A DNA stretch of 64,000 nucleotides. Origin: an uncultured Rikenella sp. (GTDB taxonomy: Bacteria > Bacteroidota > Bacteroidia > Bacteroidales > VadinHA17). Below the pieces are notes generated by a model, which had not been told where the DNA came from, did not search any database, and saw nothing but the letters and a program-made list of their open reading frames with translations. Of this stretch, positions 55 through 17,657 are shown piece after piece. A program made the position numbers and the translations under genes. Every line of letters begins with the position of its first letter. The stretch's first letter is position 1. The stretch is from NCBI GenBank assembly GCA_964455705.1, contig CAYVYM010000001.1:131930-195929 (forward strand). Reading direction: 5' to 3'.

Positions 55-2211
55 ATGACCATTGCAACTCCCTCACTGGAGATTGCTTATAAACTTGAAA
101 AAGTAAAAGTAATCAGAAGATTGATTTCTCCTTTACTATCCGGTGGAGAACAGACGTTGATGCCGCTCGGTGTTGAAGAATATTTAGTTGAAAATGTTAC
201 CGGATATGATCAACAGGTTACACTCGTAATACCAAGACCATCATTGGTCAATCTCCAGGAAAAAGAGCTTAAACCTACTGATCAGGACAGTGTTTTCGTA
301 GCCACTGCGGCGGTCAGGGGACAGAAGCATGAAGAATTCCGGCTGGACGGTATCCGTGGTGTAATTATGGGCAGCACTGATAGTCAAAACAGAATGGCGA
401 TTGCGGTTGCTGATGTTCCGGGTGTTTCAGTGGATACACAACCCTATTTCTGTCTCAATAAATACTCAGGTGATCTGCTTTTAACCGGAGATGGTAGTTT
501 TTATGAAAAAAAGGGACCAGTTATCCGTAGTGATTATGGCGCGGCTATCAGTTTAACTTTTACTTTGAATCCGAATGAATCCAAGACAATTCCTTTCGCT
601 GTTGTTTTTGATTTTCCTGTGCAGGATTACATTGATGGAAAGACATTTGACAGAATATACCTGAAAAACTTCAAAGACGAGGAAACACGCACTCCGGATT
701 TGGCAAGGATAGCCTTAAACAGTTACAGGCAATGGTGGGATCGCACATTGACAATTCAGAAACGGATCTTTGATCTGATCTCTTCTACTTCTTCCTACAA
801 GGATGACCGCGAAGGTGCATTTCGTCTGACAAGGCTGATGTTGAATGAACTCCATTTCCCTTTATCGAACGCAATTGTCTGGATAGAGAATGAAGAAGGA
901 AAAGAGCAGGCACGATTCCTGGAATGTTTTGACTATGCCTATATTGATCCTTCTGATGTGGATTGGTATTCAATGGTACTACTAATGCTTTTTCCCGAGG
1001 TGGAAAAAGACCTGTGCCAGGCATTTATAAATTCAATACAGGCAGTTGATCCTACACCCCGATGGTATCATCATCATGCTTCTTTTGTGCAGGCACAGAT
1101 GCATTTTAATGAACATCGCGAGGATTATGAAGGTGTATCCCTTACGCAGATCCGTGATGACTTCAAGACCAAAGGCAGTGTTGCCCATGATGTCGGTGCA
1201 ATGCCTAAGGGCCATCCGCTGCGTAACGTGAGTGATTACGCATGGTATAATAATAATTACTGGGTCGATCTGTATCCCAAACTGATGATGCGTGTGTTAC
1301 GCAATGTAAAATTCACGGGGGAAATTGAATTTCTTAAATCGAACTGGGAGACGCTGAAGTTCGGACTGGAATCGTTGCTGAAACTCGATTTTGACAATGA
1401 TGGTATTCCTGAAGGGCATCCGGACGATGTTAAAAACACGTTTGATAACCTGGTACTTTTCGGCGCCGATGCCTATGATGCAACTCAATTCCTGGGAGGC
1501 TGCCAGGCATTGATCAAAATGGCACAGATGCTTGGTGAAAAGGCTGATGAGGAACACATCAAAAAGGTGTACGATAAAGCCTGGAATAGTTTTGAGAAAT
1601 TATGGCGGGAAGATGTGAATATAAAAGGTGAGAAACTCGAATATTACGTTACCTGCTTTGATCCTGATTCAGGGAATACAAATACGGATGTATGGACTAA
1701 TCAACTTGATGCTTTGTGGTACTTAACTGCAATTGGAGAAGCACCTGCAATTCCGGAAGAACGTGTTAAAAAGATTCTCAAAGCTATCTATAATACAAAT
1801 CGTTCGTTTATGGGTTGGGCCATGTGCAAAACGAAGGATGGAGAGCCTGTTGAATCGGAACAGGGACAGGATGTGTATACAACTACGAATTATGTTTTTG
1901 CCCAGTTGCTGGATTATTACGGTATGGTTGAGGAAAGTAAAGAGGTATATAAATATATGGATCGCGTTGTATTTAACTATGCAAATACCCTGACAACTCC
2001 GGATAATCTTCGGGCAGAGCTGGAACTTGAAGCAGGCGAATCAAAAGCTAATCCACATTACATTGTTGCTGCCTATCCAAGGCCCGGTGCAGTATGGTCA
2101 CACCTGGTGTTGAATCACATCAAGGATCTGCAGGCGAAAAACAAAACCAAGACTATAGAGCCGAAAGACCTGATACCTTTCTATCCGTGGTTGATAGGTG
2201 ATTCTGAATAA
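55..2211 (+). CDS. Glycoside hydrolase, clan GH-O-like (GH116/GH52-type, DUF608 (alpha/alpha)6 domain)
   Basis: 718-aa ORF. The C-terminal half has motifs I associate with GH116/DUF608 enzymes (ECFDYAYIDPSDVDWYSMVLLMLFPEVEK, VAHDVGAMP, WVDLYPKLMMRVLR, DFDNDGIPEG...NTFD). Family assigned from remembered motifs only. Confidence 0.55.
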   Translation: MTIATPSLEIAYKLEKVKVIRRLISPLLSGGEQTLMPLGVEEYLVENVTGYDQQVTLVIPRPSLVNLQEKELKPTDQDSVFVATAAVRGQKHEEFRLDGIRGVIMGSTDSQNRMAIAVADVPGVSVDTQPYFCLNKYSGDLLLTGDGSFYEKKGPVIRSDYGAAISLTFTLNPNESKTIPFAVVFDFPVQDYIDGKTFDRIYLKNFKDEETRTPDLARIALNSYRQWWDRTLTIQKRIFDLISSTSSYKDDREGAFRLTRLMLNELHFPLSNAIVWIENEEGKEQARFLECFDYAYIDPSDVDWYSMVLLMLFPEVEKDLCQAFINSIQAVDPTPRWYHHHASFVQAQMHFNEHREDYEGVSLTQIRDDFKTKGSVAHDVGAMPKGHPLRNVSDYAWYNNNYWVDLYPKLMMRVLRNVKFTGEIEFLKSNWETLKFGLESLLKLDFDNDGIPEGHPDDVKNTFDNLVLFGADAYDATQFLGGCQALIKMAQMLGEKADEEHIKKVYDKAWNSFEKLWREDVNIKGEKLEYYVTCFDPDSGNTNTDVWTNQLDALWYLTAIGEAPAIPEERVKKILKAIYNTNRSFMGWAMCKTKDGEPVESEQGQDVYTTTNYVFAQLLDYYGMVEESKEVYKYMDRVVFNYANTLTTPDNLRAELELEAGESKANPHYIVAAYPRPGAVWSHLVLNHIKDLQAKNKTKTIEPKDLIPFYPWLIGDSE

Positions 2212-2231
2212 TATTTATATTATAAGTTGAA

Positions 2232-3131
2232 ATGATTATGAGCAAAAATTATGATATCACATTTGTGGGGCACATGTGCTTTGATGAGATCGTTCCCTTC
2301 GGAGGAAAATCACGTGTAGCTCCGGGAAGTGCTGTTTTATGCGGAGCCATGGTGGCGGCAAGGGTTGGCAAGAAGGTTGCTGTTGTTGCTAAAATGGCCA
2401 AAAAGGACGAGGAAATCCTTCAGCCCATGAAAGATCTGGGCATCGATTGTTATCTTATTCCCAGCGCAGAAACCTCGTATAACAGGGTGGTACACTTTTC
2501 AGCTAATGTCGATGAACGTGAAATGACCCTTATCAAATCGGCCGGAATAATCGACATCAAAGATGTTCCTGAATTGGATTCTACATGTGTTCACCTGGCC
2601 GGAATTTCGGATACCGAATTTGATATGCCACTCATGAAGGGATTGAAAGCCAGAAACTACCCGAGCCTGTCGGTTGATATGCAGAGCTTTGTGCGCCATA
2701 TCAATCCCGTGACAAAAAACCACGAGTTCAGCGACGTTGCAGATAAAAGGGAAATTGCTGCTATGATGAACAGACTAAAATTGGATGTTGTAGAAGCCAA
2801 ACTTCTTACCGGTACAGATGATCTTGAAAAGGCTGCAATAATCGTCGAATCATGGGGTTGTCCCGAAATTTTAATTACACATGCCGAGGGAGTGCTTGCG
2901 AGAGTTAAAGGGAAGACATATTATGAAAAATTCTCCAACAACAGTGTAGCTGGCAGAACTGGCAGGGGCGATACAACTTTTGCTGCATACCTCTCGCACA
3001 GATTGGATCACGAAATTCCTGAATCATTGAAGTTCGCTGCCGCACTTGTATCAATCAAGATGGAAACACCCGGCCCATTTAGCGGAACACTTGATGATGT
3101 CAATAAAAGACTGAAAGAAAAACATTCCTGA
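2232..3131 (+). CDS. PfkB-family carbohydrate kinase
   Basis: 299-aa ORF with a ribokinase-like C-terminal signature (GRTGRGDTTFAAYL). It lies 20 nt downstream of the hydrolase gene. Substrate cannot be assigned. Confidence 0.8.
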   Translation: MIMSKNYDITFVGHMCFDEIVPFGGKSRVAPGSAVLCGAMVAARVGKKVAVVAKMAKKDEEILQPMKDLGIDCYLIPSAETSYNRVVHFSANVDEREMTLIKSAGIIDIKDVPELDSTCVHLAGISDTEFDMPLMKGLKARNYPSLSVDMQSFVRHINPVTKNHEFSDVADKREIAAMMNRLKLDVVEAKLLTGTDDLEKAAIIVESWGCPEILITHAEGVLARVKGKTYYEKFSNNSVAGRTGRGDTTFAAYLSHRLDHEIPESLKFAAALVSIKMETPGPFSGTLDDVNKRLKEKHS

Positions 3132-3218: not shown

Positions 3219-3232
3219 CGCAACCGATTGCA
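3219..3232. promoter_or_regulatory. Candidate LacI-family operator (CGCAACCGATTGCA)
   Basis: Matches the LacI/CcpA-type consensus TGnAAnCGnTTnCA at 9 of its 10 specified positions (first base is C, not T). It sits 57 nt upstream of the LacI-family gene start at 3289. Confidence 0.4.
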
Positions 3233-3288: not shown

Positions 3289-4338
3289 ATGACCGGAATG
3301 AAGAAAAAAGGCGAGGTGACTATCTATGACATCTCGAAAGCGCTGAATATATCAGCATCAACGGTCTCCCGCGGCCTGAATAACAGTCCCCAGGTCAGGA
3401 AAGAGCTCAGGCGGAAGATAATGCTTACGGCCCAGGAGATGGGATACCAGCACAACAAGTTTGCCGCCAATCTGAGGCAGAAGAGAACACGCACGCTGGG
3501 GGTGGTCATCCCGCGGATTGACAGCCACTTCATGTCAACGGTTATATCAGGCATGGAAAATGTGGCAAACAAGGCAGGATACCAGCTGCTGATAAGCCAG
3601 AGCGAAGAATCGGCAGCACTTGAGGAGGCCAACATTCAGGCGTTGTTCAACAGCCGTGTTGACGGCCTGCTGGTATCACTTTCCTTTGAGACAAAAAACC
3701 AGGACGCCTTTAAAAACGTCTTCCGTAAGGACATGCCCCTCGTCTTCTTCGACAGGGTCTTCGAATGCAGTAACTGTGTCAGTGTCATCATTGATAACTA
3801 CAGGGCCGGCTATGATGCAACCAGGCATCTTATTGACCAGGGCTGCAGGAAAATTGTACATGTGGGTGGCAGCATGAACCGTAATGTCTATAACGACAGG
3901 TACCGCGGATACAGGCAGGCACTTGCCGACAGCTCCCTGGATTATGACGACAGGCTGCTGATCTTAACTGACCTGAGCGACAGGACCGGCGTATCTGTGA
4001 TTCGTCAGCTCCTTGGCAATGGCACGATGCCTGACGGCATCTTCAGCGCCAATGACACTTCAGCCGTCTCACTCATTTGTGAACTGAAGAAAAAGGGATA
4101 CAGAGTGCCTGACGATGTCGCGGTGGTGGGGTTCAATGACGACCCGGTGTCACGGATCGTCGAGCCCAACCTCACAACCATACATTATCCGGGAAGGGCT
4201 ATGGGAGAGGTGGCGGCGTCAACGATGATACGCATACTGGAGGGCACACAGTATGAAAAGGTGAATTCAATAATTCTTTCGCATGAACTGATTGTGAGGG
4301 AGTCATCAATCAGGGCCGGCAAACCTGTGCAACCATGA
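3289..4338 (+). CDS. LacI-family transcriptional regulator
   Basis: N-terminal HTH TIYDISKALNISASTVSRGLNN followed by a sugar-binding fold. Its stop overlaps the next start (ATGA at 4335-4338). Confidence 0.9.
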   Translation: MTGMKKKGEVTIYDISKALNISASTVSRGLNNSPQVRKELRRKIMLTAQEMGYQHNKFAANLRQKRTRTLGVVIPRIDSHFMSTVISGMENVANKAGYQLLISQSEESAALEEANIQALFNSRVDGLLVSLSFETKNQDAFKNVFRKDMPLVFFDRVFECSNCVSVIIDNYRAGYDATRHLIDQGCRKIVHVGGSMNRNVYNDRYRGYRQALADSSLDYDDRLLILTDLSDRTGVSVIRQLLGNGTMPDGIFSANDTSAVSLICELKKKGYRVPDDVAVVGFNDDPVSRIVEPNLTTIHYPGRAMGEVAASTMIRILEGTQYEKVNSIILSHELIVRESSIRAGKPVQP

Positions 4339-6491
4339 AAAAAGAAATTCTGGCAATAGTAATCCTGGCGGGTCTCGGCCTGTCTGCCCCGGCATTGGCT
4401 GACGACGGGTACAGGTTGTGGCTGAAGTATGATCAGATCACTGACAAAGCCTACCTGAAGGAGTGCAGCAAGACGCTGTCAGGTGTGATGATAACCGGAG
4501 ATTCCCCGGTAATAAGTGCTGCACATGATGAGCTTATTGCAGGACTCGTTGGCATGACCGGCAGGCAGGTCACTGAGGTCAGCTCACTTAAAAGGAACGG
4601 AACACTTGTTGCCGGAACCTTCCGGTCGTCACCTGTGGTAGCATCACTGCTTCCGGACGTGGCACCAGGAACAATCGGAGAGGAGGGATATATTATAAGG
4701 TCAGTCACCATGGGAGGGAAAAAAATCACTGTAATTGCCTCCGAAGGCGACAGGGGAGTCCTTTACGGGGTCTTTCATCTCCTCAGGCTGGTGAGTATGC
4801 AATCGTCCCTTGAGGACCTTTCAGTCACAGAGAAGCCCGCCACGGTCCTCAGGCTCCTCAACCACTGGGATAACCTCGACAGGAGCGTTGAACGCGGTTA
4901 TGCCGGCGAGTCTGTCTGGAACTGGCACCTTCTCCCGGGTTATATCTCGCCCCGGTACAGAGATTACGCAAGAGCCAACGCCTCCATTGGCATAAATGGT
5001 ACGGTCATCACCAACGTCAACGCCAATGCGCTGGTGCTCACCCCGCAGTATCTTGCAAAGGTAGCTGCGCTTGCCGATGTCATGAGGCCTTACGGGATAA
5101 AAGTCTATCTCACCGCACGTTTCAGTGCCCCGGCGGAGACAGGCGGACTGGCCACCTCTGACCCCCTTGATCCGGCTGTCGCCCGCTGGTGGAAGGAAAA
5201 GGCAACGGAGATATATGCCCTCATTCCCGATTTCGGGGGGTTCCTGGTCAAAGCCAACTCCGAGGGACAACCCGGTCCGCAGAATTACGGGCGCTCGCAT
5301 GCAGACGGGGCAAACATGCTTGCCGACGCCGTCGCGCCTTATGGAGGTGTGGTCATGTGGAGAGCATTTGTATACGACAATAACGTCCCGGTCGACAGGG
5401 CAAAACAGGCCTATAATGAGTTTGTTCCTCTCGACGGAACCTTCAGGAGCAATGTCCTGGTACAGGTCAAGAACGGAGCGGTGGACTTTCAGCCCCGGGA
5501 GCCCTTTCATCCGCTATTTGGCGCCATGCCTTCCACCCCGCTGATGATGGAATTCCAGATAACTCAGGAGTACCTTGGGTGTTCCACACACCTTGTCTTC
5601 CTGGCACCACTCTTTGAGGAATGCCTCAGGAGCGACACCCATGCCGCCGGTCCGGGATCGGAAGTCGCGAGGGTGATCGACGGCACACTCCATGGTCACA
5701 GCCTGACAGGCATGGCCGGAGTCGCAAATATTGGCAGTGAGAGGAACTGGACGGGACATCTCTTCGGACAGGCCAACTGGTATGCCTTCGGGCGCCTTGC
5801 CTGGCAGCCCTCCTTGTCTTCAGCCACAATCGCCTCCGAATGGATCAGGATGACACTGACGCATGATTATGAGATAGCAGAGGGGATAAGCACTATGATG
5901 CTAAGCTCGCGCGAGGCCGCAGTGAATTATATGACACCCCTTGGCCTTCACCACATCATGGCCGAAGGTCACCACTGGGGCCCCGGACCGTGGGTCAATC
6001 GCGGACGGCCTGACTGGACCTCGGTCTATTACCACAGGGCAGACACAAACGGTATCGGGTTTGACCGGACAAGAGAAGGCAGTGATGCCGTGAGCCAGTA
6101 CTTCCCTCCGCTGAATGATATTTTCAATGACCCGGATGAGTGCCCTGAAAATATGCTGCTGTGGTTCCATCATGTTCCCTGGGATCAAACGATGAAGTCG
6201 GGCAGAACACTCTGGGATGAAATGTGCATCAAATACCAGGAAGGGGTCAATCAGGCAGAAGCATACGGAGCTTACTGGGAGACACTTAACGGAAGGATTG
6301 ATGACGGCCAGTATGAACATGTAAGGCAGTTGCTTGAAATACAGGCCAGGGAGGCCCGCTGGTGGAAAGATGCCTGCCTGTTATATTTTCAGACATTCTC
6401 CCGCAGAACCATCCCGGCAGGGGTTGACAAGCCGGAACATGATCTTGACTATTACAGGGGATTGAGGTTTTACTATGTTCCGGGAATTTAA
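4335..6491 (+). CDS. aguA: Alpha-glucuronidase, GH67
   Basis: 718 aa with a signal peptide, then DDGYRLWLKY (the hallmark GH67 N-terminus). Also has the conserved EFQITQEYLG block and a typical length. Confidence 0.9.
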   Translation: MKKEILAIVILAGLGLSAPALADDGYRLWLKYDQITDKAYLKECSKTLSGVMITGDSPVISAAHDELIAGLVGMTGRQVTEVSSLKRNGTLVAGTFRSSPVVASLLPDVAPGTIGEEGYIIRSVTMGGKKITVIASEGDRGVLYGVFHLLRLVSMQSSLEDLSVTEKPATVLRLLNHWDNLDRSVERGYAGESVWNWHLLPGYISPRYRDYARANASIGINGTVITNVNANALVLTPQYLAKVAALADVMRPYGIKVYLTARFSAPAETGGLATSDPLDPAVARWWKEKATEIYALIPDFGGFLVKANSEGQPGPQNYGRSHADGANMLADAVAPYGGVVMWRAFVYDNNVPVDRAKQAYNEFVPLDGTFRSNVLVQVKNGAVDFQPREPFHPLFGAMPSTPLMMEFQITQEYLGCSTHLVFLAPLFEECLRSDTHAAGPGSEVARVIDGTLHGHSLTGMAGVANIGSERNWTGHLFGQANWYAFGRLAWQPSLSSATIASEWIRMTLTHDYEIAEGISTMMLSSREAAVNYMTPLGLHHIMAEGHHWGPGPWVNRGRPDWTSVYYHRADTNGIGFDRTREGSDAVSQYFPPLNDIFNDPDECPENMLLWFHHVPWDQTMKSGRTLWDEMCIKYQEGVNQAEAYGAYWETLNGRIDDGQYEHVRQLLEIQAREARWWKDACLLYFQTFSRRTIPAGVDKPEHDLDYYRGLRFYYVPGI

Positions 6492-6522
6492 ATACAATAA
6501 ATAAACGTCCAAAGAATATTCT

Positions 6523-7557
6523 ATGAATGACAGACACTGGGAGACCCTGCTGAGGGTCATTAACGGCGAGAAGTTACAGGACCGGCCTGTGGGATTCATT
6601 ATCGACAGCCCCTGGCTGCCTGGCTGGTACGGATCAACTATCCTTGATTATTTTACTGACCCTGTGACCTGGTATGAGGCAAATGTCAAGGCTTCAAAGA
6701 CATTCCCCGAGGTGCTGTTCCTCCCGGGTTACTGGGCCGAGTACGGTATGTGTACCGAACCTTCAGCATTTGGGACCAAGCTGGTCTGGACAGTGAACGA
6801 CTTCCCCCATCCGGTAAAACTGCAATGTACTGCGGAGGCAATTTCGAAGCTTGAGAAACCCAATGTGAGTACAGACGGGCTTCTTCCATTCGTTATGGCC
6901 AGGATGGCGAAATATGAGGAGAAGCTGAAGGAGAACGGGTGCCGGTACAGGTTCGCCTCGAGCCGCGGGCCGCTCAACATAGCCTCTTTCCTCTTTGGCA
7001 CCACCGACTTCATGCTGGCGCTGGCCATCACCCCCGAGGAGGCTGACAAGGCACTGACGGTGATAACTGATTTCGTAATTGACTGGCTGTCTCTCCAGTA
7101 TGAAAAATTCCCCGATATAGAGGGGGTATTACTCCTTGATGACATCGTCGGTTTCCTTGGTCAGCCCGATTTTGAAGCCTTTGTACTTCCACACCTTAAA
7201 AGGATATATCAGACCTTCAACCCGAAGGTTGGGTTCTTCCATAATGATGCCTCCGGAATAATTACTGCCGGATACCTTGAAGAGATAGGCATCAATCTCT
7301 TTAATTACAGCTTCAATCACCCTGTAGATGAGATGAGGAGGCTCACCGGCGACAGCGTCACCCTGCTTGGCAACCTCCCGCCCAGGGATGTGCTGGCCAT
7401 GGGTACTCCGGCCGAGGTGGAAGCCGGCGTCATTAGCATGATGCGTTCAGTGTCAGACGAGAAAAGAATCATCTGGTCATGCGGAGGAGGAATGCCCCCG
7501 GATGCTTCTACGGAAAATTTACGTACATTTATCACGACAGTGAGAAATTATTCGTAA
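6523..7557 (+). CDS. Uroporphyrinogen-decarboxylase (URO-D) family protein, MtaA/CmuA-like
   Basis: 344 aa. The N-terminus LLRVINGEKLQDRPVGF and the C-terminus GNLPPRDVLAMGTPAEVEAGV...CGGGMPP fit the URO-D fold family. It sits between aguA and xylB with 31-nt and 10-nt gaps. Confidence 0.75.
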   Translation: MNDRHWETLLRVINGEKLQDRPVGFIIDSPWLPGWYGSTILDYFTDPVTWYEANVKASKTFPEVLFLPGYWAEYGMCTEPSAFGTKLVWTVNDFPHPVKLQCTAEAISKLEKPNVSTDGLLPFVMARMAKYEEKLKENGCRYRFASSRGPLNIASFLFGTTDFMLALAITPEEADKALTVITDFVIDWLSLQYEKFPDIEGVLLLDDIVGFLGQPDFEAFVLPHLKRIYQTFNPKVGFFHNDASGIITAGYLEEIGINLFNYSFNHPVDEMRRLTGDSVTLLGNLPPRDVLAMGTPAEVEAGVISMMRSVSDEKRIIWSCGGGMPPDASTENLRTFITTVRNYS

Positions 7558-7567
7558 AAGGATCCTT

Positions 7568-9055
7568 ATGCTATTATTGGGTATTGACCTCGGCAGCTCA
7601 TCGGTGAAGGTCTCCGTTGTCAACGGAGAGACCGGCAGAGCACTATCATCCGCTTCCTATCCTCCCTCCGAGATGGAGATCTCCGCCCCCATGCCCGGGT
7701 GGGCTGAGCAGGACCCGGAAGTGTGGTGGAAGAACTTTGCCCTGGCCCTCGCAGCCTGTCTTAAACCTCTTGGCACAAAGAGAAAGGATATTGGCGCTAT
7801 CGGGGTAGCTTACCAGATGCACGGGCTGGTCATCATTGACAGTGACAGGAATGTGCTTCGGCCCTCAATAATATGGTGTGACAGCAGGGCTGTGGAGACC
7901 GGAGAGAAAGCGTTTGAGAAGATGGGGAAGGATTTCTGCCTGCATCACCTTTTGAACTCCCCGGGCAACTTCACCGCCTCGAAGCTGGCATGGGTCAGGG
8001 AGAACGAGCCTGCTATCTTCAAACGCATTCACAAGATCATGCTTCCCGGTGATTATCTTGCAATGAGACTTACCGATGAGATAAAAACTTCATATACAGG
8101 ACTTTCGGAAGGGATCTTCTGGGATTTCATGAGGAAAGAGATTTCGGAGGAGTTACTTGAATACTACGGCATTGCTCCTGAGCTGCTGGCTGAGCCTGCA
8201 GAGTCATTCTCAGTGCAGGGTCACCTTACCCCTGCCATGGCGGAGGAGCTCGGGCTTCCATCCGGCATACCCGTTTCGTACAGGGCAGGAGATCAGCCTA
8301 ACAATGCCCTGTCACTCAACGTACTGAACCCGGGAGAGGTAGCCACTACCGCCGGCACATCCGGGGTGATATACGGTGTCACTGACATTACTCAGTTTGA
8401 CCCCCTCTCGCGTATTAACACCTTCCTGCATGTCAACCACACTGATCGGAAAACACGTCTCGGAGTGCTGCTCTGCATAAACGGTACAGGCATTCTTAAC
8501 TCGTGGCTCCAGAAAAATACAGCATCCGGACTGTCATACCCCGGGATGAATGACCTGGCGGCATCAGTGGAGCCCGGCAGTGACGGACTCGTAATCCTTC
8601 CCTTTGGAAACGGTTCCGAGAGAATGTTTCGTAACAGCGACATAGGGGCATCGGTACACGGCCTGAACTTCAACATTCACCGGCAGGGCCATCTCTACCG
8701 GGCGGCACAGGAGTCGATAGCCTACTCGTTCCGGTTCGGCCTCGAAATTATGAAGGAGACGGGCATTAACCCGGCGGTGATCAGGGCCGGTGAGTCGAAC
8801 CTCTTCCTGAGCAGGGTCTTCAGGGAGGTGCTTTCCAGTCTCACATCGACCGTAATCACCCTTTACAATACCGACGGTTCTATCGGTGCAGCCCGCGGCG
8901 CAGGCATCGGATGCGGCTATTACAAGTCTGAACGGGATGCCTTCAATGGCCTTGAGATCACCGGGAAAAGCGAACCGGACAACAAACTGGCGGTACTCTA
9001 TGATGAGAAATACATGGAATGGCTTGATATTTTGGAGAATCAATTAAATGAATAG
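7568..9055 (+). CDS. xylB: Xylulokinase (FGGY family)
   Basis: 495 aa. FGGY N-terminal motif [15 protein letters not shown] and AYQMHGLV. It is adjacent to xylA. Confidence 0.85.
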
Positions 9056-9065
9056 AAACACTACT

Positions 9066-10388
9066 ATGGCAAAAAAGAAGACTGGTGAGGCTTTCCCGGG
9101 AATCGGGAAGATCAGGTATGAAGGCAGGGAATCAAAGAACCCTCTTGCATTCAAATGGTATGACCCCGAAGCAAAGGTCGGAGGTAAAAAAATGAAGGAT
9201 CTTTTGCGGTTTGCAATCGCATACTGGCATTCGTTCTGCGGCGACGGCACTGACACATTCGGGGCGAAGACAAGGGATTTTCCGTATGACGGAATGGAAG
9301 GCGACGAGCGGATAAAAGTCAAACTTGACATGGCCTTCGAGTTCTTTGACAAGATTGGAGCACCGTTCTATTGCTTTCATGATACTGACCTGGTTGGAGA
9401 CGGTTCTGTCTTCGAGATCGAAAAGCGCCTTGAGAAGTGGGTGCCGGTGATCAAGGCACGACAGAAGGAGACGGGCATGAAGCTGCTCTGGGGTACTGCC
9501 AACCTCTTTGGCAATCCCCGTTACATGAACGGCGCTGCCACCAATCCTGATTTCAACGTGGTCACCAATGCTGCCGTGCAGCTGAAGAATGCCATTGATG
9601 CTACCATTGCCCTGGGCGGGCAGGGGTATGTCTTCTGGGGAGGACGCGAAGGCTATCTTTCACTGCATAACACCGATATGAAGCGTGAGCTTGATCACCT
9701 GGCCATGATGCTTACCCTTGCGCGCGACTACGGCCGCAAGAAAGGCTTCAAAGGCACCTTCTACATCGAACCCAAACCGATGGAGCCCACCAAGCACCAG
9801 TACGACTTCGACGCAGCAACGGTAACAGGTTTTCTCCGTCACTATGGCCTTGACAAGGACTTCAAACTGAACGTGGAGGTCAACCATGCCACACTGGCAG
9901 GTCACTCGTTCCAGCATGACCTGCAGACGGCTGCTGATGCTGACATGCTCGGCAGCATAGATGCCAACAGGGGCGACTATCAAAACGGGTGGGATACTGA
10001 TGAGTTCCCCACCAACATCAATGAGATCACTGAAGCCATGCTTGTAATTCTCAGGGCTGGAGGATTCAAGACCGGGGGCATCAACTTCGACGCTCATGTG
10101 CGACGCAACTCCACCGACCCCGAGGATCTCTTTATTGCTCACATCAACGGCATGGATACTTTTGCCCGCGGGCTTGTAATAGCTGACCGCATTCTTAAGG
10201 AATCAGACTATCTGAAAATGCGCAAGACAAGGTATGCTTCGTTTGACAAGGGTGACGGCGCTCTCTATGAGAAGGGCAAACTGACTCTAGAAGACCTCCA
10301 TGCCATGGCCGGGAAGGTTGGAGAACCGAAGAAGATCAGCGGCAGGCAGGAGCTTTATGAGCAGCTCATAAACATGTATATCATCTGA
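9066..10388 (+). CDS. xylA: Xylose isomerase
   Basis: Motifs [44 protein letters not shown] and [16 protein letters not shown] are all present. The ORF opens at ATG 9048. I prefer ATG 9066 ([20 protein letters not shown]) because it matches the usual XylA N-terminus. Confidence 0.93.
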
Positions 10389-10395
10389 TAACATC

Positions 10396-11823
10396 ATGGC
10401 CCTGTTCACCCCCGTGCGACGGTGGCAGCCTGCCTTTCGTCCGTTCAGGAGGCTGTCTGCCGGGGGGCGGATGCTGGCATTTACAGAGAGGGTGGTCAAA
10501 GGGCCACTCTTCGGATGCAGGATGTGCGGTAACTGTCTCCTCCAGGAGACAGCCTACATCTGTCACATGGCGTGCCCAAAGGGGATACGTAACGGTCCCT
10601 GCGGGGGCGTGAACAAAGGGTATTGCTACGTTGACCCCACAAGACGCTGTGCGTGGCACCTCATATATGAGCGGTCGCGCAGGATGAACCGTGAGCATAA
10701 GCTTCTTGAGGTACTCCCGCCGGTAGACTGGGACAGGGCAGGGACAGAGACATGGGGCGAGGTGGTGAGAAAGGTAAGGGAGGCGGGGCTCCGGAGCTTT
10801 ATGCTTCCCTCTGCCAGAAAAGGGAAGAGCGTCGGGGCACAGCTCGAAGAAAAGGTTTTCAGGCCGATAAGGCAGCCCGACTGGTGGAGAGGTGATGCGC
10901 AGTATCACCCCCCGGCAGTGACTGAGCCGCAGTCGCGCCTTGAGGGCGGACTGCGCAGCGGAAGGTTCGTCATCACCGCCGAGGTACAACCGCCGCTGGG
11001 CGCGGCCACGGCAAGGCTTGAAGAAAAGATCAGGCTGGTCAAGCCCTGGGTCACCGCAATAAATTTTACCGACGGATCATCAGCTATCCCGAGAATGTCA
11101 AGCACCGCCTGCTCTGCCGTGGCCGCATCACTCGGTGCAGATCCGGTGATGCAGATCTCTGCCCGCGACAATACACGCAACAGCCTCCAGTCGCAGGCAA
11201 TAGGAGCAAACGCCCTGGGAATATATAATATCCTCTGCCTCTCGGGAGACAGTCCGGGCGTGGGACCAAAACCACGGGGTAACATGAACATCGTCGACAT
11301 CGATTCTGTGCAGATGCTATGGATCCTGAGACGCATGAGGGATGAAGGCATCTATCTCGACGGGCGTGAAATAAAAAACAGACCCCGGCTCTTCCTCGGA
11401 GCGGCAGCGGCCCCCCTGGCGCAGGATCCTTCACTGCAGGTCATACGTGACAGGAAGAAGATCTATGCAGGGGCTCAGTTCCTGCAGACAAACCTTGTCT
11501 TTGCCCCTGACATGCTTGACCCCTGGCTCGAATGCCTTGATAAGGAGGGTCTGCTTGACAAGGTGTATATCCTCGTGGGCATAAGCCCGCTCAGATCGCT
11601 GAAGCTGGCACGGTACCTCAATGACAAAATACCCGGGGTGACCATTCCCGATGCCGTGATGAAAAGACTGGAGGGTGCCGGTGACAGATTCCAGGAAGAG
11701 AGCATAGCTATCACGGTTGAGAATATAAAGCGTCTGCGCGGGAAGCACGGGGTCAGCGGTGTTCATCTCATGCCGCTGGGGTGGGAGGTCGCCATACCTC
11801 AAATCATGGGGGATGCACTATGA
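10396..11823 (+). CDS. Fused MetV-like (MTHFR C-terminal Cys-rich domain) / MetF-like methylenetetrahydrofolate reductase
   Basis: The N-terminal module is Cys-rich (CRMCGNCLL..CHMACPKGIRNGPCGG). The rest resembles the MTHFR TIM barrel (INFTDGSS, LCLSGD, GAQFLQTN, GVSGVHLMPLG). An alternative start is ATG 10471. The gene lies 7 nt after the xylA stop. Confidence 0.7.
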   Translation: MALFTPVRRWQPAFRPFRRLSAGGRMLAFTERVVKGPLFGCRMCGNCLLQETAYICHMACPKGIRNGPCGGVNKGYCYVDPTRRCAWHLIYERSRRMNREHKLLEVLPPVDWDRAGTETWGEVVRKVREAGLRSFMLPSARKGKSVGAQLEEKVFRPIRQPDWWRGDAQYHPPAVTEPQSRLEGGLRSGRFVITAEVQPPLGAATARLEEKIRLVKPWVTAINFTDGSSAIPRMSSTACSAVAASLGADPVMQISARDNTRNSLQSQAIGANALGIYNILCLSGDSPGVGPKPRGNMNIVDIDSVQMLWILRRMRDEGIYLDGREIKNRPRLFLGAAAAPLAQDPSLQVIRDRKKIYAGAQFLQTNLVFAPDMLDPWLECLDKEGLLDKVYILVGISPLRSLKLARYLNDKIPGVTIPDAVMKRLEGAGDRFQEESIAITVENIKRLRGKHGVSGVHLMPLGWEVAIPQIMGDAL

Positions 11824-13610
11824 AGCTGCTGACATCAAGGGAACTGGCCAGGGCCACTAACCTTGACACGCCGCGAGGGGTAATCATTGCCGAAGCCCTG
11901 ATGCAGATCTTCCGCTACAACAAGGTAAACAAGGTATACTCCAGCACCTATGACATTGACCCCCAGGTATTCATCAACTCCATCCTTGAACACCTTGACA
12001 TAAGGTATGAGGTTCCCGAAAAGGATCTTGCCAACCTGCCATCGTCAGGCCCTTTCGTCACCGTATCAAACCACCCCTTTGGAGGCATTGATGCCCTCAT
12101 ACTTTTAAAGATACTCATGTCTGGCCGCTCCGATGTCAGGGTGATGGCCAACTTCCTGCTTCAAAAAATCGATCCTTTGGGGAAGCATATCCTTCCTGCC
12201 GAACCTGCTGACAGTCAGGGAGAGAGAAGCTCATCATTCACCGGAATCAGGGAGGCGCTGAGGTATGTCAGTGAAGGGCATGTTGTGGCTCTCTTCCCGG
12301 CAGGAGAGGTATCAACCTACCAGTCTGACTCGAACCTGATCATTGACAGGGAGTGGCAGGAGCAGATCATCAGGGCCGTCAGGATGGCCGGGGTACCTGT
12401 GGTTCCGGTATATTTTCACGGCACCAACTCACGCTGGTTCCATATCCTCGGCCGCATTCATCCGCTGCTGCGAACAGCCAGGCTTGGGTCGGAACTGATT
12501 AACAAACGCCATAAGCTGATCAGGATTCGGATTGGCAAGCCTGTGAGCGTGAAGGAACAGGCAGACTTCAGTGACACCGCCCGCCTGGGACGTTATCTCC
12601 GGGCAAGGACCTATTCATTGGGTTCCTCCCTTGAAGCCAAACCTTTCTTTAGTGGCCTGAGGCGCAGAAAAAGCGCCAGACAGGAGCCGGTAGCCCCTGC
12701 GTCCGACAAGGCTCTGCTGAGGGAAGAGATAAACACGATGAGACCGTCGCATGAACTCTTCTCGACCAGGAACTATATCGTCTTGTTTGCCCCCACCAGG
12801 GTGATGCCAAACCTCATCAGGGAGATCGGCAGGCTTCGTGAGATAACCTTCAGGGCTGTGGGTGAAGGGACGAACAGGGCCAGTGACCTTGATGAATATG
12901 ACTTCTATTATCATCATCTTATTGTCTGGGATGACCAGGAAGGAGCGCTTGTAGGCGCATACAGGATAGGCAAAGGGAAGGAGATACTCAGTCAGTACGG
13001 CATCAAGGGGTTCTATATCAATACGCTGTTCCGTATCCGCAAGTCGTTTGCACCTGTTCTGGGTGAGTCACTCGAACTGGGCAGATCATTTATCGTTCAG
13101 GAATACCAACGCAAGGCAATGTCACTGTTCCTGCTCTGGAAAGGCCTCCTGACAGTACTTCTCAACCATGCCGAATACCGGTACCTGATAGGACCCGTCA
13201 GCATCAGCAACGACTTTTCCCCCCTGTCCAAATCGCTTATAGTCGAATTCGTCCGGAACAACCATTTTGACCCGGAGATGGCACGGTTTGTCAGACCGAG
13301 GAAGGAGTTCATCATGAAGGTCGATAAGCGCGTTGACAGCTCAATCATCATAGACTCCGCAGAAAAAGACATCAGCAGGGTCGAGAAGGTTGTAGGCGAT
13401 GTCGATAACGGATACCGGATACCCGTCCTGCTTAAAAAGTACCTTGAACTGAATGCCCGTATTATAGGTTTTAATGTGGATCCTGATTTCAATAACTGCC
13501 TTGACGGACTGATAATGGTTGATGTTTACATGATACCCGCAGAATTTGTCAATGCACTCTCCCGGGACCAGAGTGAGGAGGATATTGGTAAAAGATTCAG
13601 GCCAATGTAG
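11820..13610 (+). CDS. Bifunctional acyltransferase, OlsF-like (PlsC-type O-acyltransferase + GNAT-like N-acyltransferase; aminolipid synthesis)
   Basis: The N-terminal part has the acyltransferase motif VSNHPFGGIDALIL and FPAGEVS. The C-terminal ~270 aa are OlsB/hemolysin-like (GNAT-type). The start ATG 11820 overlaps the upstream stop (ATGA). The ORF-track start at 11781 was rejected. Confidence 0.65.
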   Translation: MKLLTSRELARATNLDTPRGVIIAEALMQIFRYNKVNKVYSSTYDIDPQVFINSILEHLDIRYEVPEKDLANLPSSGPFVTVSNHPFGGIDALILLKILMSGRSDVRVMANFLLQKIDPLGKHILPAEPADSQGERSSSFTGIREALRYVSEGHVVALFPAGEVSTYQSDSNLIIDREWQEQIIRAVRMAGVPVVPVYFHGTNSRWFHILGRIHPLLRTARLGSELINKRHKLIRIRIGKPVSVKEQADFSDTARLGRYLRARTYSLGSSLEAKPFFSGLRRRKSARQEPVAPASDKALLREEINTMRPSHELFSTRNYIVLFAPTRVMPNLIREIGRLREITFRAVGEGTNRASDLDEYDFYYHHLIVWDDQEGALVGAYRIGKGKEILSQYGIKGFYINTLFRIRKSFAPVLGESLELGRSFIVQEYQRKAMSLFLLWKGLLTVLLNHAEYRYLIGPVSISNDFSPLSKSLIVEFVRNNHFDPEMARFVRPRKEFIMKVDKRVDSSIIIDSAEKDISRVEKVVGDVDNGYRIPVLLKKYLELNARIIGFNVDPDFNNCLDGLIMVDVYMIPAEFVNALSRDQSEEDIGKRFRPM

Positions 13611-13666: not shown

Positions 13667-13691
13667 AGAGGCAGGTCCCGGATCTGCCTCT
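13667..13691 (-). terminator. Candidate terminator hairpin after ppiD
   Basis: 8-bp arms AGAGGCAG/CTGCCTCT with a 9-nt loop. Read on the minus strand it is followed by GCGTTTTC. Confidence 0.4.
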
Positions 13692-17646: not shown

Positions 17647-17650
17647 GAGG
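17645..17650 (+). promoter_or_regulatory. Shine-Dalgarno-like AGGAGG
   Basis: A perfect AGGAGG lies 7 nt upstream of the ATG at 17658. No comparable site was seen before the other genes I inspected in this window. Confidence 0.5.
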
Positions 17651-17657
17651 AGTAACC

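Follow-up and report, generated by a model that had tools for sequence, protein, structure and literature searches.

The gene under study lies at 6523-7557 on the + strand of the window (the whole 64-kb stretch of DNA that was analysed). It begins with ATG and encodes a cytoplasmic protein of 344 aa, P0001, which belongs to the URO-D superfamily and is a candidate methyltransferase I (MT I, substrate:corrinoid methyltransferase) for 4-O-methyl-glucuronate. The operon opens with a LacI-family regulator gene (3289-4338, +; Pfam LacI and Peripla_BP_1/3/4), followed by a gene for a GH67 alpha-glucuronidase (4335-6491, +), whose N, M and C domains match Pfam at 84, 501 and 306 bits. The N-terminus of the GH67 protein, MKKEILAIVILAGLGLSAPALADD, resembles a signal peptide and points to a periplasmic location. 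Enzymes of this family free (4-O-methyl-)glucuronate from the non-reducing end of xylo-oligosaccharides. Downstream of the URO-D gene are an FGGY kinase gene (7568-9055, +; FGGY_N and FGGY_C domains), the xylose isomerase gene xylA (9048-10388, +; NF003998 664 bits and TIGR02630 641 bits, both above the cut-offs) and a fusion of a MetV-like domain with a MetF methylene-THF reductase (10396-11823, +; Pfam DUF5981 97 bits, MTHFR 92 bits). The kinase is xylulokinase-like and closest to XylB, with a TIGR01312 score of 302 bits that falls below the cut-off of 380. The gaps on either side of the URO-D gene are 31 nt (from GH67) and 10 nt (to the kinase). The open reading frame, these gaps and the Pfam matches confirm the initial annotation, which had placed a URO-D-fold gene between GH67 and xylB and a MetV-MetF fusion in the same operon.

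The strongest terminator-like hairpin on the + strand is located 3' of OlsF (13667-13691, +) and has an 11-pair stem with 6 G-C pairs. It comes from a consensus scan only, in which the total number of such sites equals the level in shuffled sequence, and is the probable end of a transcription unit running from LacI to OlsF. The formate dehydrogenase that had been proposed to complete a route from the methyl ether to CO2 is present as a gene pair at 16027-20402 with NuoE/NuoF-like and molybdopterin formate-dehydrogenase-type domains, but this pair lies outside the operon. FolD, Fhs and formate dehydrogenase are all present in the genome.

Fold and conserved residues of P0001

P0001 matches Pfam URO-D (PF01208) over its full length at 111 bits (cut-off 23.9), and its database name, uroporphyrinogen decarboxylase, is a consequence of this match. 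Scores against the more specific families are far lower relative to their cut-offs: 52 bits for TIGR01464 (HemE; cut-off 303), 43 bits for NF040654 (MtaA/MtbA/CmuA type; cut-off 400), and 55 bits for the top NCBIfam match, MtaA/CmuA (TIGR01463; cut-off 235), which is thus a weak one. Among its sequence relatives, every one with a solved structure is a UroD decarboxylase (best profile E-value 6.5e-9). The AF2 model (pLDDT 90.8) is a TIM barrel, for which Foldseek gives TM scores of 0.76-0.80 to UroD structures and 0.79-0.80 to the MtaA-type structure 4AY7. The two types match equally, and no URO-D-type MT I is among the matches listed.

Although the barrel is shared with HemE/UroD, the residues that define the decarboxylase are not. 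In a HMMER alignment to 6W2O, the NLGHG of UroD aligns to SCGGG in P0001, so that the catalytic His339 is replaced by the invariant G322; with the alignment extended by one residue, the catalytic Asp86 falls on the invariant G75. The Arg-rich N-terminal motif PVWxMRQAGR, which contains Arg37 and Arg41, is replaced by PVGFIIDSPW. A role in haem synthesis, dismissed in the initial annotation, was rejected on the grounds of the absent UroD catalytic residues, a TIGR01464 score that falls far short of the HemE cut-off and the position of the gene within a xylan operon. Conservation within the P0001 family itself is strongly polar in character, with two arginines and many Asp, Glu, Asn and His residues. 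Invariant polar residues number 21, R148 and R288 among them, and every one lies at the C-terminal end of one of the eight barrel strands or just past it.

The His-x-Cys...Cys zinc site of MtaA-type enzymes is absent from P0001, as judged by profile alignment to P0122, the other URO-D protein of the genome. This paralogue is MtaA-like and carries the H-I-C and G-C motifs; in the profile alignment, its zinc ligands fall on D242, S244 and G322 of P0001, and S244 is variable. The possibility that H240-x-D242...C320 forms a variant zinc site was considered and rejected, since the P0122 ligands align at D242/S244/G322 and C320 is not conserved, being A or V in 6 of 43 sequences. The P0001 sequence yielded no assignable metal or cofactor motif. 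On this point the likeness to MtaA drawn in the initial annotation does not hold, and P0001 is better compared with the MT I of O-demethylases.

The corrinoid cluster and a shared operator

No B12-binding protein is encoded within the 64-kb window, as had been noted at the outset. A search of the genome for corrinoid partners located one 14.6 kb upstream of the window on the same contig, in a cluster (G000:C1:117285-119693) that belongs to the same xylan super-locus. The cluster contains a corrinoid protein (117285-117953; B12-binding_2 and B12-binding domains), a Pterin_bind methyltransferase (118153-119004) and a Met_synt_B12-like protein (119064-119693) resembling the activation domain of MetH. 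It is flanked by SusC/SusD and by SASA esterase/GH115 genes, and the surrounding 50 kb consists entirely of xylan genes, including a GH51-like arabinofuranosidase (a domain-based label), GH3, GH43, GH30-like, MFS_2, GH10 and GH116.

The corrinoid protein has 222 aa, and its PDB matches 1Y80, 7XCN and 4JGI rank above the B12 domain of MetH. The pterin-binding protein, a putative methyltransferase II (MT II; Pfam Pterin_bind, 79 bits), has as its best solved relative the O-demethylase MT II of Desulfitobacterium hafniense (4O0Q/4O1E, E 1.4e-37). The activator-like protein has 209 aa, and in relatives its gene remains beside that of the corrinoid protein. An ATP-dependent RACE-type activator (PF14574) was not found in the genome, which is 98.4% complete, nor was a cobalamin riboswitch or other known RNA found near the corrinoid genes.

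It was also considered whether these genes represent a split housekeeping methionine synthase. This was rejected for the present genome because a complete MetH (1216 aa) and a canonical MetF (207 bits) adjoin each other on contig 7, and no stand-alone homocysteine-binding module is present. The MetV-MetF fusion is therefore a second methylene-THF reductase beside the contig 7 pair. Since housekeeping MetH-MetF is encoded elsewhere, and neither a stand-alone homocysteine methyltransferase (HcyMT) nor MtaB was found in the genome, the two URO-D proteins are the sole donor partners left for the corrinoid set. In relatives that carry HcyMT, the corrinoid system may also feed methionine synthesis.

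The two loci appear to be connected by a regulatory sequence. A LacI-type operator candidate, CGCAACCGATTGCA (reverse complement TGCAATCGGTTGCG), is located at 3219-3232, 57 nt upstream of the LacI regulator gene. Within the 3.2-Mb genome there are only two exact copies of its core, TGnAATCGGTTGC, one upstream of each locus, where about 0.4 exact matches are expected by chance according to our own arithmetic. The second copy (G000:C1:111568) stands upstream of SusC-SusD, the gene pair in front of the corrinoid cluster. Matches with one mismatch number 14, compared to 4 for a reversed control. The two exact copies suggest that the URO-D and corrinoid loci are co-regulated through a common LacI operator. 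Separately, and as a weak lead only, one copy with a single mismatch lies 124 bp upstream of a UxaE-UxaC hexuronate operon.

Conservation and genomic associations

Ten related genomes share the order LacI-GH67-URO-D-XylB-XylA-MetVF, with 79-89% identity. An eleventh genome (L013) also has the operon, with GH67 undetected there, and in another (L088) LacI-GH67-URO-D is retained up to the end of the contig. The linkage of GH67 to the URO-D gene, first noticed in the window, is more than a chance juxtaposition. A LacI orthologue adjoins the URO-D gene even where GH67 is missing (L022-L024, L127, L129 and L130), and in these loci, as well as in L136, GH115 stands beside the family member. Other uronate genes take similar positions among these more distant members of the family: UxaC is 18 bp from the URO-D gene in L135, the order URO-D-UxuA occurs in L136, and UxaE-UxaC is beside URO-D in L124.

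Among 300 other genomes of the order, an orthologue of the corrinoid protein is present in 26 of the 27 that carry the URO-D family and in 21 of the 273 that lack it, counts in which the signal is overstated as related genomes are not independent. The lone URO-D-positive genome without the corrinoid protein is 79% complete. Association with alpha-glucuronidases is looser, with GH115 or GH67 present in 22 of 27 URO-D-positive and 39 of 273 URO-D-negative genomes, and neither in the remaining 5 of 27. Only 22 of the 61 alpha-glucuronidase-positive genomes have the URO-D family, so that it is not generally required for xylan use. Within these same genomes the corrinoid protein accompanies the URO-D family in 21 of 22 cases, versus 6 of 39 where the family is absent.

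The association extends beyond the order. Of 50 genomes with homologues, from at least 4 phyla, 48-49 have an orthologous stand-alone corrinoid protein. Within the order, seven genomes representing six families have the URO-D gene and the corrinoid protein gene in divergent orientation, 0.1-1.3 kb apart. The order HcyMT-corrinoid protein-activator is seen in relatives such as L124-L128, and in L128 a series MetVF-MT II-activator-corrinoid protein-HcyMT stands divergently next to the URO-D gene. Of the 300 genomes, 11 carry an orthologue of the fused MetVF; 8 of the 11 also have the URO-D family, and in 9 of the 11 the fusion is 0.1-6 kb from the corrinoid protein gene.

Proposed function and alternatives

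Based on these genomic associations, P0001 is most likely the substrate-binding part of a B12-dependent methyl-transfer system that removes the methyl group of 4-O-methyl-glucuronate without oxygen. More specifically, it is probably the MT I component of a cobalamin-dependent O-demethylase whose substrate is 4-O-methyl-D-glucuronate, or a uronate intermediate directly derived from it, and which passes the methyl group by way of methyl-THF to MetVF. The earlier proposal of a methyl-transferring enzyme for the 4-O-methyl group gains support here from genomic evidence only, namely the corrinoid partners, the co-occurrence and the linkage to uronate genes.

In the proposed scheme, periplasmic GH67 and GH115 would free 4-O-methyl-glucuronate from glucuronoxylan fragments, as known for these families, and the sugar acid would be imported into the cytoplasm, possibly by the MFS_2 transporter of the locus or an ExuT-like MFS protein of the hexuronate operon. 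P0001 would bind it and present the methyl ether to the Co(I) corrinoid protein, producing methyl-Co(III) and glucuronate, the latter a likely substrate of the UxaC pathway. By homology to the Desulfitobacterium MT II and MeTr, the pterin-binding MT II would move the methyl group to tetrahydrofolate. The dedicated MetV-MetF fusion could then oxidise methyl-THF to methylene-THF for entry into the C1 pool; alternatively, methyl-THF may be used by MetH for methionine synthesis. Corrinoid oxidised to Co(II) would be rescued by the MetH-activation-domain-like protein, presumably through SAM-dependent reductive methylation as in MetH.

Several observations count against this O-demethylase assignment. 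GH67 appears to be periplasmic but P0001 cytoplasmic, so an importer would be needed, for which only candidates can be named. The substrates of the known MT I enzymes of the URO-D type are aryl methyl ethers or halomethanes, and for methanol the unrelated MtaB is the activating enzyme; we know of no characterised precedent for attack of Co(I) on an aliphatic sugar methyl ether. Furthermore, with no recognisable zinc motif and an unconserved C320, activation of the alkoxide leaving group is left without explanation.

The corrinoid system could instead be an aryl methyl ether O-demethylase for ferulate, sinapate or vanillate released from xylan or lignin-carbohydrate complexes. All of the characterised O-demethylases with a URO-D-type MT I (MtvB, OdmB, VdmB and MtoB) take methoxylated aromatics (PMC13222342), the MT II of the cluster is closest to that of an aryl O-demethylase, and the arabinofuranosidases and esterases of the locus process feruloylated arabinoxylan. 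However, the recurrent neighbours of the family are the uronate genes GH67, GH115, UxaC, UxuA and UxaE, rather than feruloyl esterases or aromatic-acid genes, and the polar invariant residues would be a better match for a sugar acid than for an aromatic ring, a judgement made without a ligand model. An aromatic substrate is considered unlikely. Somewhat less probable again is a corrinoid-independent role in the metabolism of uronates or pentoses, for example as a decarboxylase, isomerase or hydrolase, with the corrinoid co-occurrence reflecting shared ecology. Such a role would agree with the UroD decarboxylases being the only solved sequence relatives, with the lack of a nearby corrinoid gene in the majority of distant homologues and with the lack of an assignable metal or cofactor motif. 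It is difficult to reconcile with the missing UroD catalytic residues, with a corrinoid co-occurrence that is far tighter than that with alpha-glucuronidases and holds inside alpha-glucuronidase-positive genomes, or with the divergent adjacency to the corrinoid protein gene in several families.

P0001 might also work in the opposite direction as an MtaA-like MT II, moving methyl groups to an acceptor from a corrinoid protein loaded by methyl-THF or, in some relatives, by methanol and MtaB. The fold is common to MtaA and Mlp proteins, the top NCBIfam match, if weak, is MtaA/CmuA, and in L127 an MtaB homologue (515 bits) lies in the corrinoid cluster beside the URO-D gene in an MtaABC-like arrangement. 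This seems very unlikely, given that P0001 lacks the zinc site that defines thiol-methylating MT II enzymes and the window's genome lacks MtaB. The clusters of relatives already hold two acceptor-side methyltransferases (HcyMT and the pterin-binding MT II), and a methylating enzyme would have no obvious role in a catabolic xylan/uronate operon. A further variant, to which we give the least credence, replaces the 4-O-methyl ether with a uronate methyl ester, present on imported galacturonate or glucuronate oligomers or monomers, as the methyl donor. SN2 demethylation is chemically easier for esters than for alkyl ethers, and L124 has an operon, located beside UxaE-UxaC, in which URO-D is the first gene and is accompanied by genes for a CE8 pectinesterase and a GDSL esterase. 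CE8 is a neighbour in this one locus only, though, and the dominant linkage is to GH67/GH115, whose product is a methyl ether. In addition, such esters are already removed as methanol by periplasmic esterases, and no appreciable methyl esterification is known for natural glucuronoxylan.

The O-demethylase proposed here would resemble Moorella MtvABC, Acetobacterium dehalogenans Odm/Vdm, D. hafniense Dhaf4610-4612 and archaeal MtoABCD in combining a URO-D MT I and a pterin-binding MT II with a corrinoid protein that is small and of the MtaC type; the likeness of P0001 to MtvB, OdmB, VdmB, MtoB and CdmB is one of superfamily and gene set. Unlike these systems, it would act on an aliphatic sugar rather than an aryl methyl ether. 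Its activator is MetH-activation-domain-like instead of an ATP-dependent RACE type, and its genes are divided between two operons of a Bacteroidota polysaccharide utilisation locus, under apparent LacI control and with a dedicated MetV-MetF fusion attached. The CdmBCA chloromethane dehalogenase of A. dehalogenans also consists of a zinc-free URO-D-fold MT I, a corrinoid protein and a pterin-binding MT II (PMC13222342), but CdmB has a hydrophobic haloalkane channel where the invariant residues of P0001 are polar and rich in Arg, Asp and His. The methylcobamide:thiol methyltransferases MtaA, MtbA and Mlp (4AY7; PMC10418091) share the fold and an MtaC-type partner, and differ in their zinc site and in transferring methyl from cobalt to a thiol, the reverse of the donor-to-cobalt direction proposed for P0001.

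In Ruegeria pomeroyi, the hub of the split methionine synthase/MtgBCD glycine-betaine demethylase is formed by a corrinoid protein that stands alone and a THF methyltransferase that works in both directions (PMC12478193). The present system would likewise be a corrinoid/THF hub serving a substrate-specific methyltransferase, and HcyMT joins the cluster in relatives of this locus. In contrast, the R. pomeroyi donor enzyme MtgB is of the MttB superfamily rather than the URO-D fold, the context here is glycan catabolism and the window's genome has no stand-alone HcyMT. A functional parallel is the cytochrome P450 6-O-methyl-D-galactose demethylase of marine porphyran degraders, which is O2-dependent and oxidative and releases formaldehyde (PMC6292453). 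Both would be enzymes of glycan loci whose dedicated task is to demethylate the ether of a sugar derived from a polysaccharide and so open it to catabolism; the system proposed here would be independent of O2 and would conserve the methyl group as methyl-THF.

Few polysaccharides on land are as abundant as glucuronoxylan, in which a 4-O-methyl ether is present on most of the glucuronate side chains. We know of no description of how anaerobes dispose of this methyl group. A literature search, largely outside subscription journals, found no description of an enzyme for O2-free demethylation of 4-O-methyl-glucuronate and no paper on corrinoid-dependent demethylation of methylated sugars. If correct, the proposed function would represent the first O2-independent carbohydrate O-demethylase and the first corrinoid methyl-transfer system built into polysaccharide utilisation loci, extending corrinoid O-demethylases from aromatic to carbohydrate ethers. 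In anaerobic fibre degraders the methyl ether carried by xylan side chains would neither be a dead end nor be lost as methanol but would be kept as methyl-THF, available for energy, formate or methionine, and this would fill a gap in anoxic xylan catabolism in guts, digesters and sediments. Plant methyl groups would thereby gain a new route to the folate pool, to methionine and, via formate or hydrogen, to methanogenic food webs, and fibre degradation would be tied to the availability of vitamin B12. The recurrent 'uroporphyrinogen decarboxylase' mis-annotation in loci or organisms where haem synthesis is implausible would be explained, and the enzyme might serve as an oxygen-free biocatalyst for sugar demethylation.

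The substrates of many URO-D clades are unknown (PMC13222342). The P0001 family was matched at a minimum of 594 places in a collection of species-representative genomes, and the 80 loci kept for analysis span Bacteroidota, Planctomycetota, Verrucomicrobiota, Kiritimatiellales and Sumerlaeota. The chances are about even that the members of this large clade of the UroD superfamily, as yet uncharacterised, are cobalamin-dependent demethylases of methylated sugars, with 4-O-methyl-glucuronate as the putative substrate in the lineage of the window. Most of the Planctomycetota homologues (51-57% identity) occur beside genes for an Nramp-like transporter, Gfo/Idh/MocA, ThuA, DUF6807 or gcvP, and lack CAZyme and corrinoid protein genes within a distance of 10 kb. 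These deviating contexts indicate that the substrate may differ across the family. Linkage to uronate genes is found in three deep clades of the family tree.

The xylan super-locus and its probable transcription units

P0001, the URO-D-superfamily protein under study (344 aa; 6523–7557, + strand), matches the Pfam URO-D profile over its full length (111 bits). Coordinates and domain searches confirm the neighbours named in the initial annotation: a three-domain GH67 alpha-glucuronidase (Pfam; 4335–6491, +) ends 31 nt upstream, and a xylulokinase-like FGGY kinase (domain and NCBIfam searches; 7568–9055, +) begins 10 nt downstream. XylA (NCBIfam; 9048–10388, +) is followed by the MetV-MetF fusion that had also been placed in this operon (MetVF; DUF5981, MetV-like, plus MTHFR, Pfam; 10396–11823, +) and by an OlsF-like acyltransferase (domain search; 11781–13610, +). 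At the 5' end, a LacI-family regulator (3289–4338, +) overlaps the start of GH67. A terminator-like hairpin, best on the + strand, lies 3' of the OlsF-like gene (13667–13691), and 3289–13610 therefore looks like a single transcription unit. The formate-dehydrogenase-type pair (NuoE/F-like and molybdopterin domains, by domain search; 16027–20402) is outside the operon, with a minus-strand PpiD-like gene in between. Positions 55–3131, just 5' of the LacI gene, encode GH116 and a kinase with weak similarity to PfkB (299 aa, 32 bits); both are kept at 89–94% identity in three other loci (L012, L019, L020). The kinase could be a candidate for a KDG-kinase-like step in uronate catabolism.

The window (C1:131930–195929) encodes no corrinoid protein (CP), as the initial annotation had stated; the rest of the genome has one 14.6 kb upstream of it (C1:117285–117953; 222 aa, B12-binding_2 plus B12-binding). 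Next come a pterin-binding methyltransferase (MT II, methylcorrinoid:THF methyltransferase; 283 aa) and a 209-aa activation-like protein (L008:13065–13694) matching the SAM-binding half of the MetH activation domain. A SusC/SusD pair flanks this trio on one side, and a SASA-type esterase and a GH115 alpha-glucuronidase on the other. The flanks also contain GH43, GH3-CBM6, a GH51-like arabinofuranosidase (a domain-based label), a GH30-like gene, an MFS_2 transporter, GH10, GH3, GH116 and a PfkB kinase. Given these xylan genes, the contig from ~96 to 145 kb is a single xylan super-locus holding both the corrinoid trio and the P0001 gene set.

In PDB searches, MT II best matches the O-demethylase MT II of Desulfitobacterium hafniense (4O0Q/4O1E/4O1F; E 1.4e-37), which ranks above MeTr and the MetH pterin domain. 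The corrinoid protein best matches 1Y80, 7XCN, 4JGI and 3EZX, all above the MetH B12 domain. The activation-like protein has a weak match to 1J6R; its Cys-rich C-terminal tail (YQCHICGDRTCIYRNR), outside the MetH activation domain, could provide a metal or Fe-S site that bears on corrinoid re-reduction. GH67 has a signal peptide, and P0001, the corrinoid protein, MT II and the activator have none. Contig 7 encodes a complete MetH (1216 aa) with a canonical MetF immediately after it, so the trio and MetVF are extra copies. FolD and Fhs are also encoded. No stand-alone homocysteine methyltransferase (HcyMT), MtaB or RACE-type activator was found in this genome; its two URO-D proteins are therefore the only possible donor-side partners of the trio.

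A candidate LacI-type operator (3219–3232; reverse complement TGCAATCGGTTGCG) is nearly duplicated by TGAAATCGGTTGCA, which lies in the intergenic stretch ahead of SusC, the first gene of the SusC-SusD/corrinoid run. The 3.2-Mb genome contains exactly two instances of the core common to both copies, TGnAATCGGTTGC, namely these; our own arithmetic puts the chance expectation at about 0.4 exact matches. SusD and the corrinoid gene are separated by a strong hairpin terminator and then a perfect TAnnTTTG element of the Bacteroidota type, about 130 nt before the start of the corrinoid protein (L008:11103–11158, equivalent to C1:117102–117157); Rfam detects no riboswitch in this region of the trio. 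The trio may be under its own promoter, and with the terminator and promoter-like element standing between SusD and the trio, it is no more than plausible that the corrinoid genes are themselves co-regulated with the P0001 operon. A hexuronate operon downstream of a GH28 gene (UxaE-UxaC-KDPG aldolase-MFS-SDR; C6:83082–87865, L138:5082–9865) has a one-mismatch operator copy, TGCAATCGGTTGTA, 124 bp upstream of UxaE and may belong to the same LacI regulon, but one-mismatch matches are only about four times as many as for a reversed-pattern control.

Fold and conserved residues of P0001

Against NCBIfam, P0001 scores 55 bits for MtaA/CmuA (cut-off 235) and 52 bits for HemE (cut-off 303), and is far under every curated cut-off. 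PDB sequence and profile searches match UroD alone (E 1e-6 to 6e-9). The AF2 model is confident (pLDDT 90.8) and fits UroD structures as well as it fits the MtaA structure 4AY7 (TM 0.78–0.80); fold alone therefore cannot separate the two. An identity as UroD (HemE) is contradicted by the low HemE score and by the replacement of catalytic-site residues by glycines. In the alignment to HemE 6W2O, UroD NLGHG corresponds to SCGGG of P0001, with the catalytic-site His falling on G322, a residue unchanged across 43 family members; with the alignment extended by one residue, UroD Asp86 falls on the invariant G75. The Arg-rich N-terminal motif was not found in P0001 when aligned to UroD. An MtaA-type zinc enzyme is also rejected: the second URO-D paralogue of the genome, P0122 (342 aa, 171 bits; C4:35046–36014, L009:9035–10063), has the canonical MtaA-type H-I-C ... 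G-C motif, and in a profile alignment its zinc-ligand positions fall on D242, S244 (variable across the 43 sequences) and G322 of P0001. C320 is discounted as a zinc ligand, being Ala or Val in 6 of the 43. In the residue comparison suggested with the initial annotation, the UroD catalytic residues and the MtaA-type zinc ligands are thus both absent.

The invariant polar residues are D28, S29, E73, C77, E79, S81, D118, R148, N152, Q192, D206, D207, H240, N241, D242, N261, H266, N284, R288, S319 and N332. By alignment and AF2 model, every one sits at or just past the C-terminal ends of the eight predicted barrel strands, the usual active-site face of a TIM barrel. This polar, Arg-containing set would suit a sugar acid.

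Synteny and co-occurrence in relatives

A pattern scan with one genome per species gave at least 594 loci encoding P0001 relatives, and 80 were kept (51–89% identity; Bacteroidales, Prolixibacteraceae, Planctomycetota, Verrucomicrobiota, Kiritimatiellales and Sumerlaeota). The linkage of GH67 and URO-D noted initially recurs in other genomes: the order LacI-GH67-URO-D-XylB-XylA-MetVF is kept in ten relatives at 79–89% identity, and L088 has LacI-GH67-URO-D up to the contig end. L013 has the same order with GH67 not detected. Three relatives at 66–68% show GH115 ... MFS-GH10-GH3 | LacI-URO-D, and L129 and L130 show SusCD-GH115-SASA-LacI-URO-D. L136 reads GH115-MFS_2-GH10-GH43-URO-D-UxuA-SASA, and in L135 UxaC is 18 bp from URO-D. 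In seven genomes of six families the URO-D and corrinoid protein genes are divergent and 0.1–1.3 kb apart. Arrangements include MetVF-MT II-activator-CP-HcyMT | URO-D (L128), LacI | UxaE-UxaC | CE8-GDSL-URO-D | HcyMT-CP-activator ... MT II-MetVF (L124) and GH115-GH3-GH10-MFS | LacI | URO-D | HcyMT-CP-MtaB-activator (L127). In a midpoint-rooted tree built from 82 family members, three deep clades have members next to uronate or alpha-glucuronidase genes, and two of these clades have members next to corrinoid genes. Fused MetVF occurs in 11 genomes and is 0.1–6 kb away from the corrinoid gene in 9 of them, whereas in the window's lineage it is beside the URO-D gene instead; URO-D, MetVF, the corrinoid protein and MT II are thus linked from three directions.

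A stand-alone corrinoid protein of 210–230 aa, orthologous at 44–86% identity, is present in 48–49 of 50 genomes carrying a P0001 homologue. Among 300 other genomes of the order, 27 are URO-D-positive (over 18 family codes), and a close corrinoid-protein orthologue is found in 26 of these versus 21 of the 273 negatives; the lone exception is 79% complete. GH115 or GH67 occurs in 22/27 versus 39/273, and fused MetVF in 8/27 versus 3/273. Of the 61 alpha-glucuronidase-positive genomes, 21/22 with URO-D have the corrinoid protein versus 6/39 without. Counts are given instead of Fisher p-values because related genomes are not independent. Together with the absent UroD residues and the nearby trio, the corrinoid counts uphold the initial view of the URO-D-like protein as a methyl-transfer candidate.

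Proposed demethylation and other contexts of the family

It is likely that P0001 is a 'corrinoid-dependent methyltransferase'. The fuller statement, a corrinoid-dependent O-demethylase with P0001 as MT I (substrate:corrinoid methyltransferase) and 4-O-methyl-glucuronate as substrate, is the most economical reading and is on balance favoured. P0001 would take the methyl group from 4-O-methyl-glucuronate, the small corrinoid protein would carry it, and MT II would hand it to THF, giving methyl-THF for oxidation by MetVF. Cobalt that had become oxidised would be repaired by the MetH-type activation protein. Plain glucuronate would then enter the UxaC pathway, whose genes are located elsewhere in this genome. 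The reading is built on gene content, homology, synteny, co-occurrence and the missing UroD and MtaA signature residues. The direction of methyl transfer, the substrate, the transporter and the fate of methyl-THF we infer. Two weaknesses are that no metal site is assignable in P0001 and that we know of no precedent for Co(I) cleaving an aliphatic ether of a sugar.

Well-established systems for aryl methyl ethers and halomethanes combine a URO-D-superfamily MT I enzyme (MtvB, OdmB, VdmB, MtoB, CdmB or CmuA) with a corrinoid protein, an MT II and an activator; not all of these MT I enzymes use zinc, and clades of unknown substrate are acknowledged (PMC13222342; PMC10418091). For glycine betaine, a split methionine-synthase hub serves a substrate-specific methyltransferase (PMC12478193), and 6-O-methyl-galactose is demethylated by a P450 in aerobic marine bacteria (PMC6292453). 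A literature search turned up no paper describing corrinoid-dependent demethylation of sugars or URO-D/corrinoid genes in xylan loci. Such methyl-transfer systems are thus known, and the proposed sugar-ether substrate and xylan-locus setting would be new.

A further weakness of the proposed reading is that the family probably spans several substrates. Many Planctomycetota homologues occur in other settings (Gfo/Idh/MocA, ThuA, DUF6807, gcvP, a second URO-D paralogue, an Nramp-like transporter). In L027:4656–11026, L060:258–6780 and ~20 more Planctomycetota loci, homologues at 51–57% identity are translationally coupled, by a 4-nt overlap, to a weakly Nramp-like 587-aa membrane protein, often with an SSF symporter, an NAD_binding_2 dehydrogenase and a second, shorter URO-D paralogue (327 aa) upstream. 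No corrinoid gene lies within 10 kb of these homologues; the orthologous corrinoid protein is encoded elsewhere in the genomes. In one Bacteroidales subclade (L036:6972–12442, L037, L046, L047, L131, L132), the homologue lies between gcvP, encoding the glycine-cleavage P-protein, a THF-linked C1 enzyme, and an Oxidoreduct_C/Gfo-type gene, with no CAZymes nearby. The P0122 cluster contains two beta-lactamase-fold/DUF3471 proteins, an amidohydrolase, a ROK kinase, an MFS transporter, a SIS_2 protein and a patatin-like lipase; it looks like an amino-sugar or muropeptide-type pathway in which the corrinoid protein may have a second client. In L127, a Bacteroidales xylan locus, a full-length homologue of the methanol:cobalamin methyltransferase MtaB (L127:11824–13197, 515 bits) lies between the corrinoid and activation proteins, beside the URO-D gene and a stand-alone HcyMT, an arrangement that hints at methanol as a further methyl donor to this corrinoid hub.
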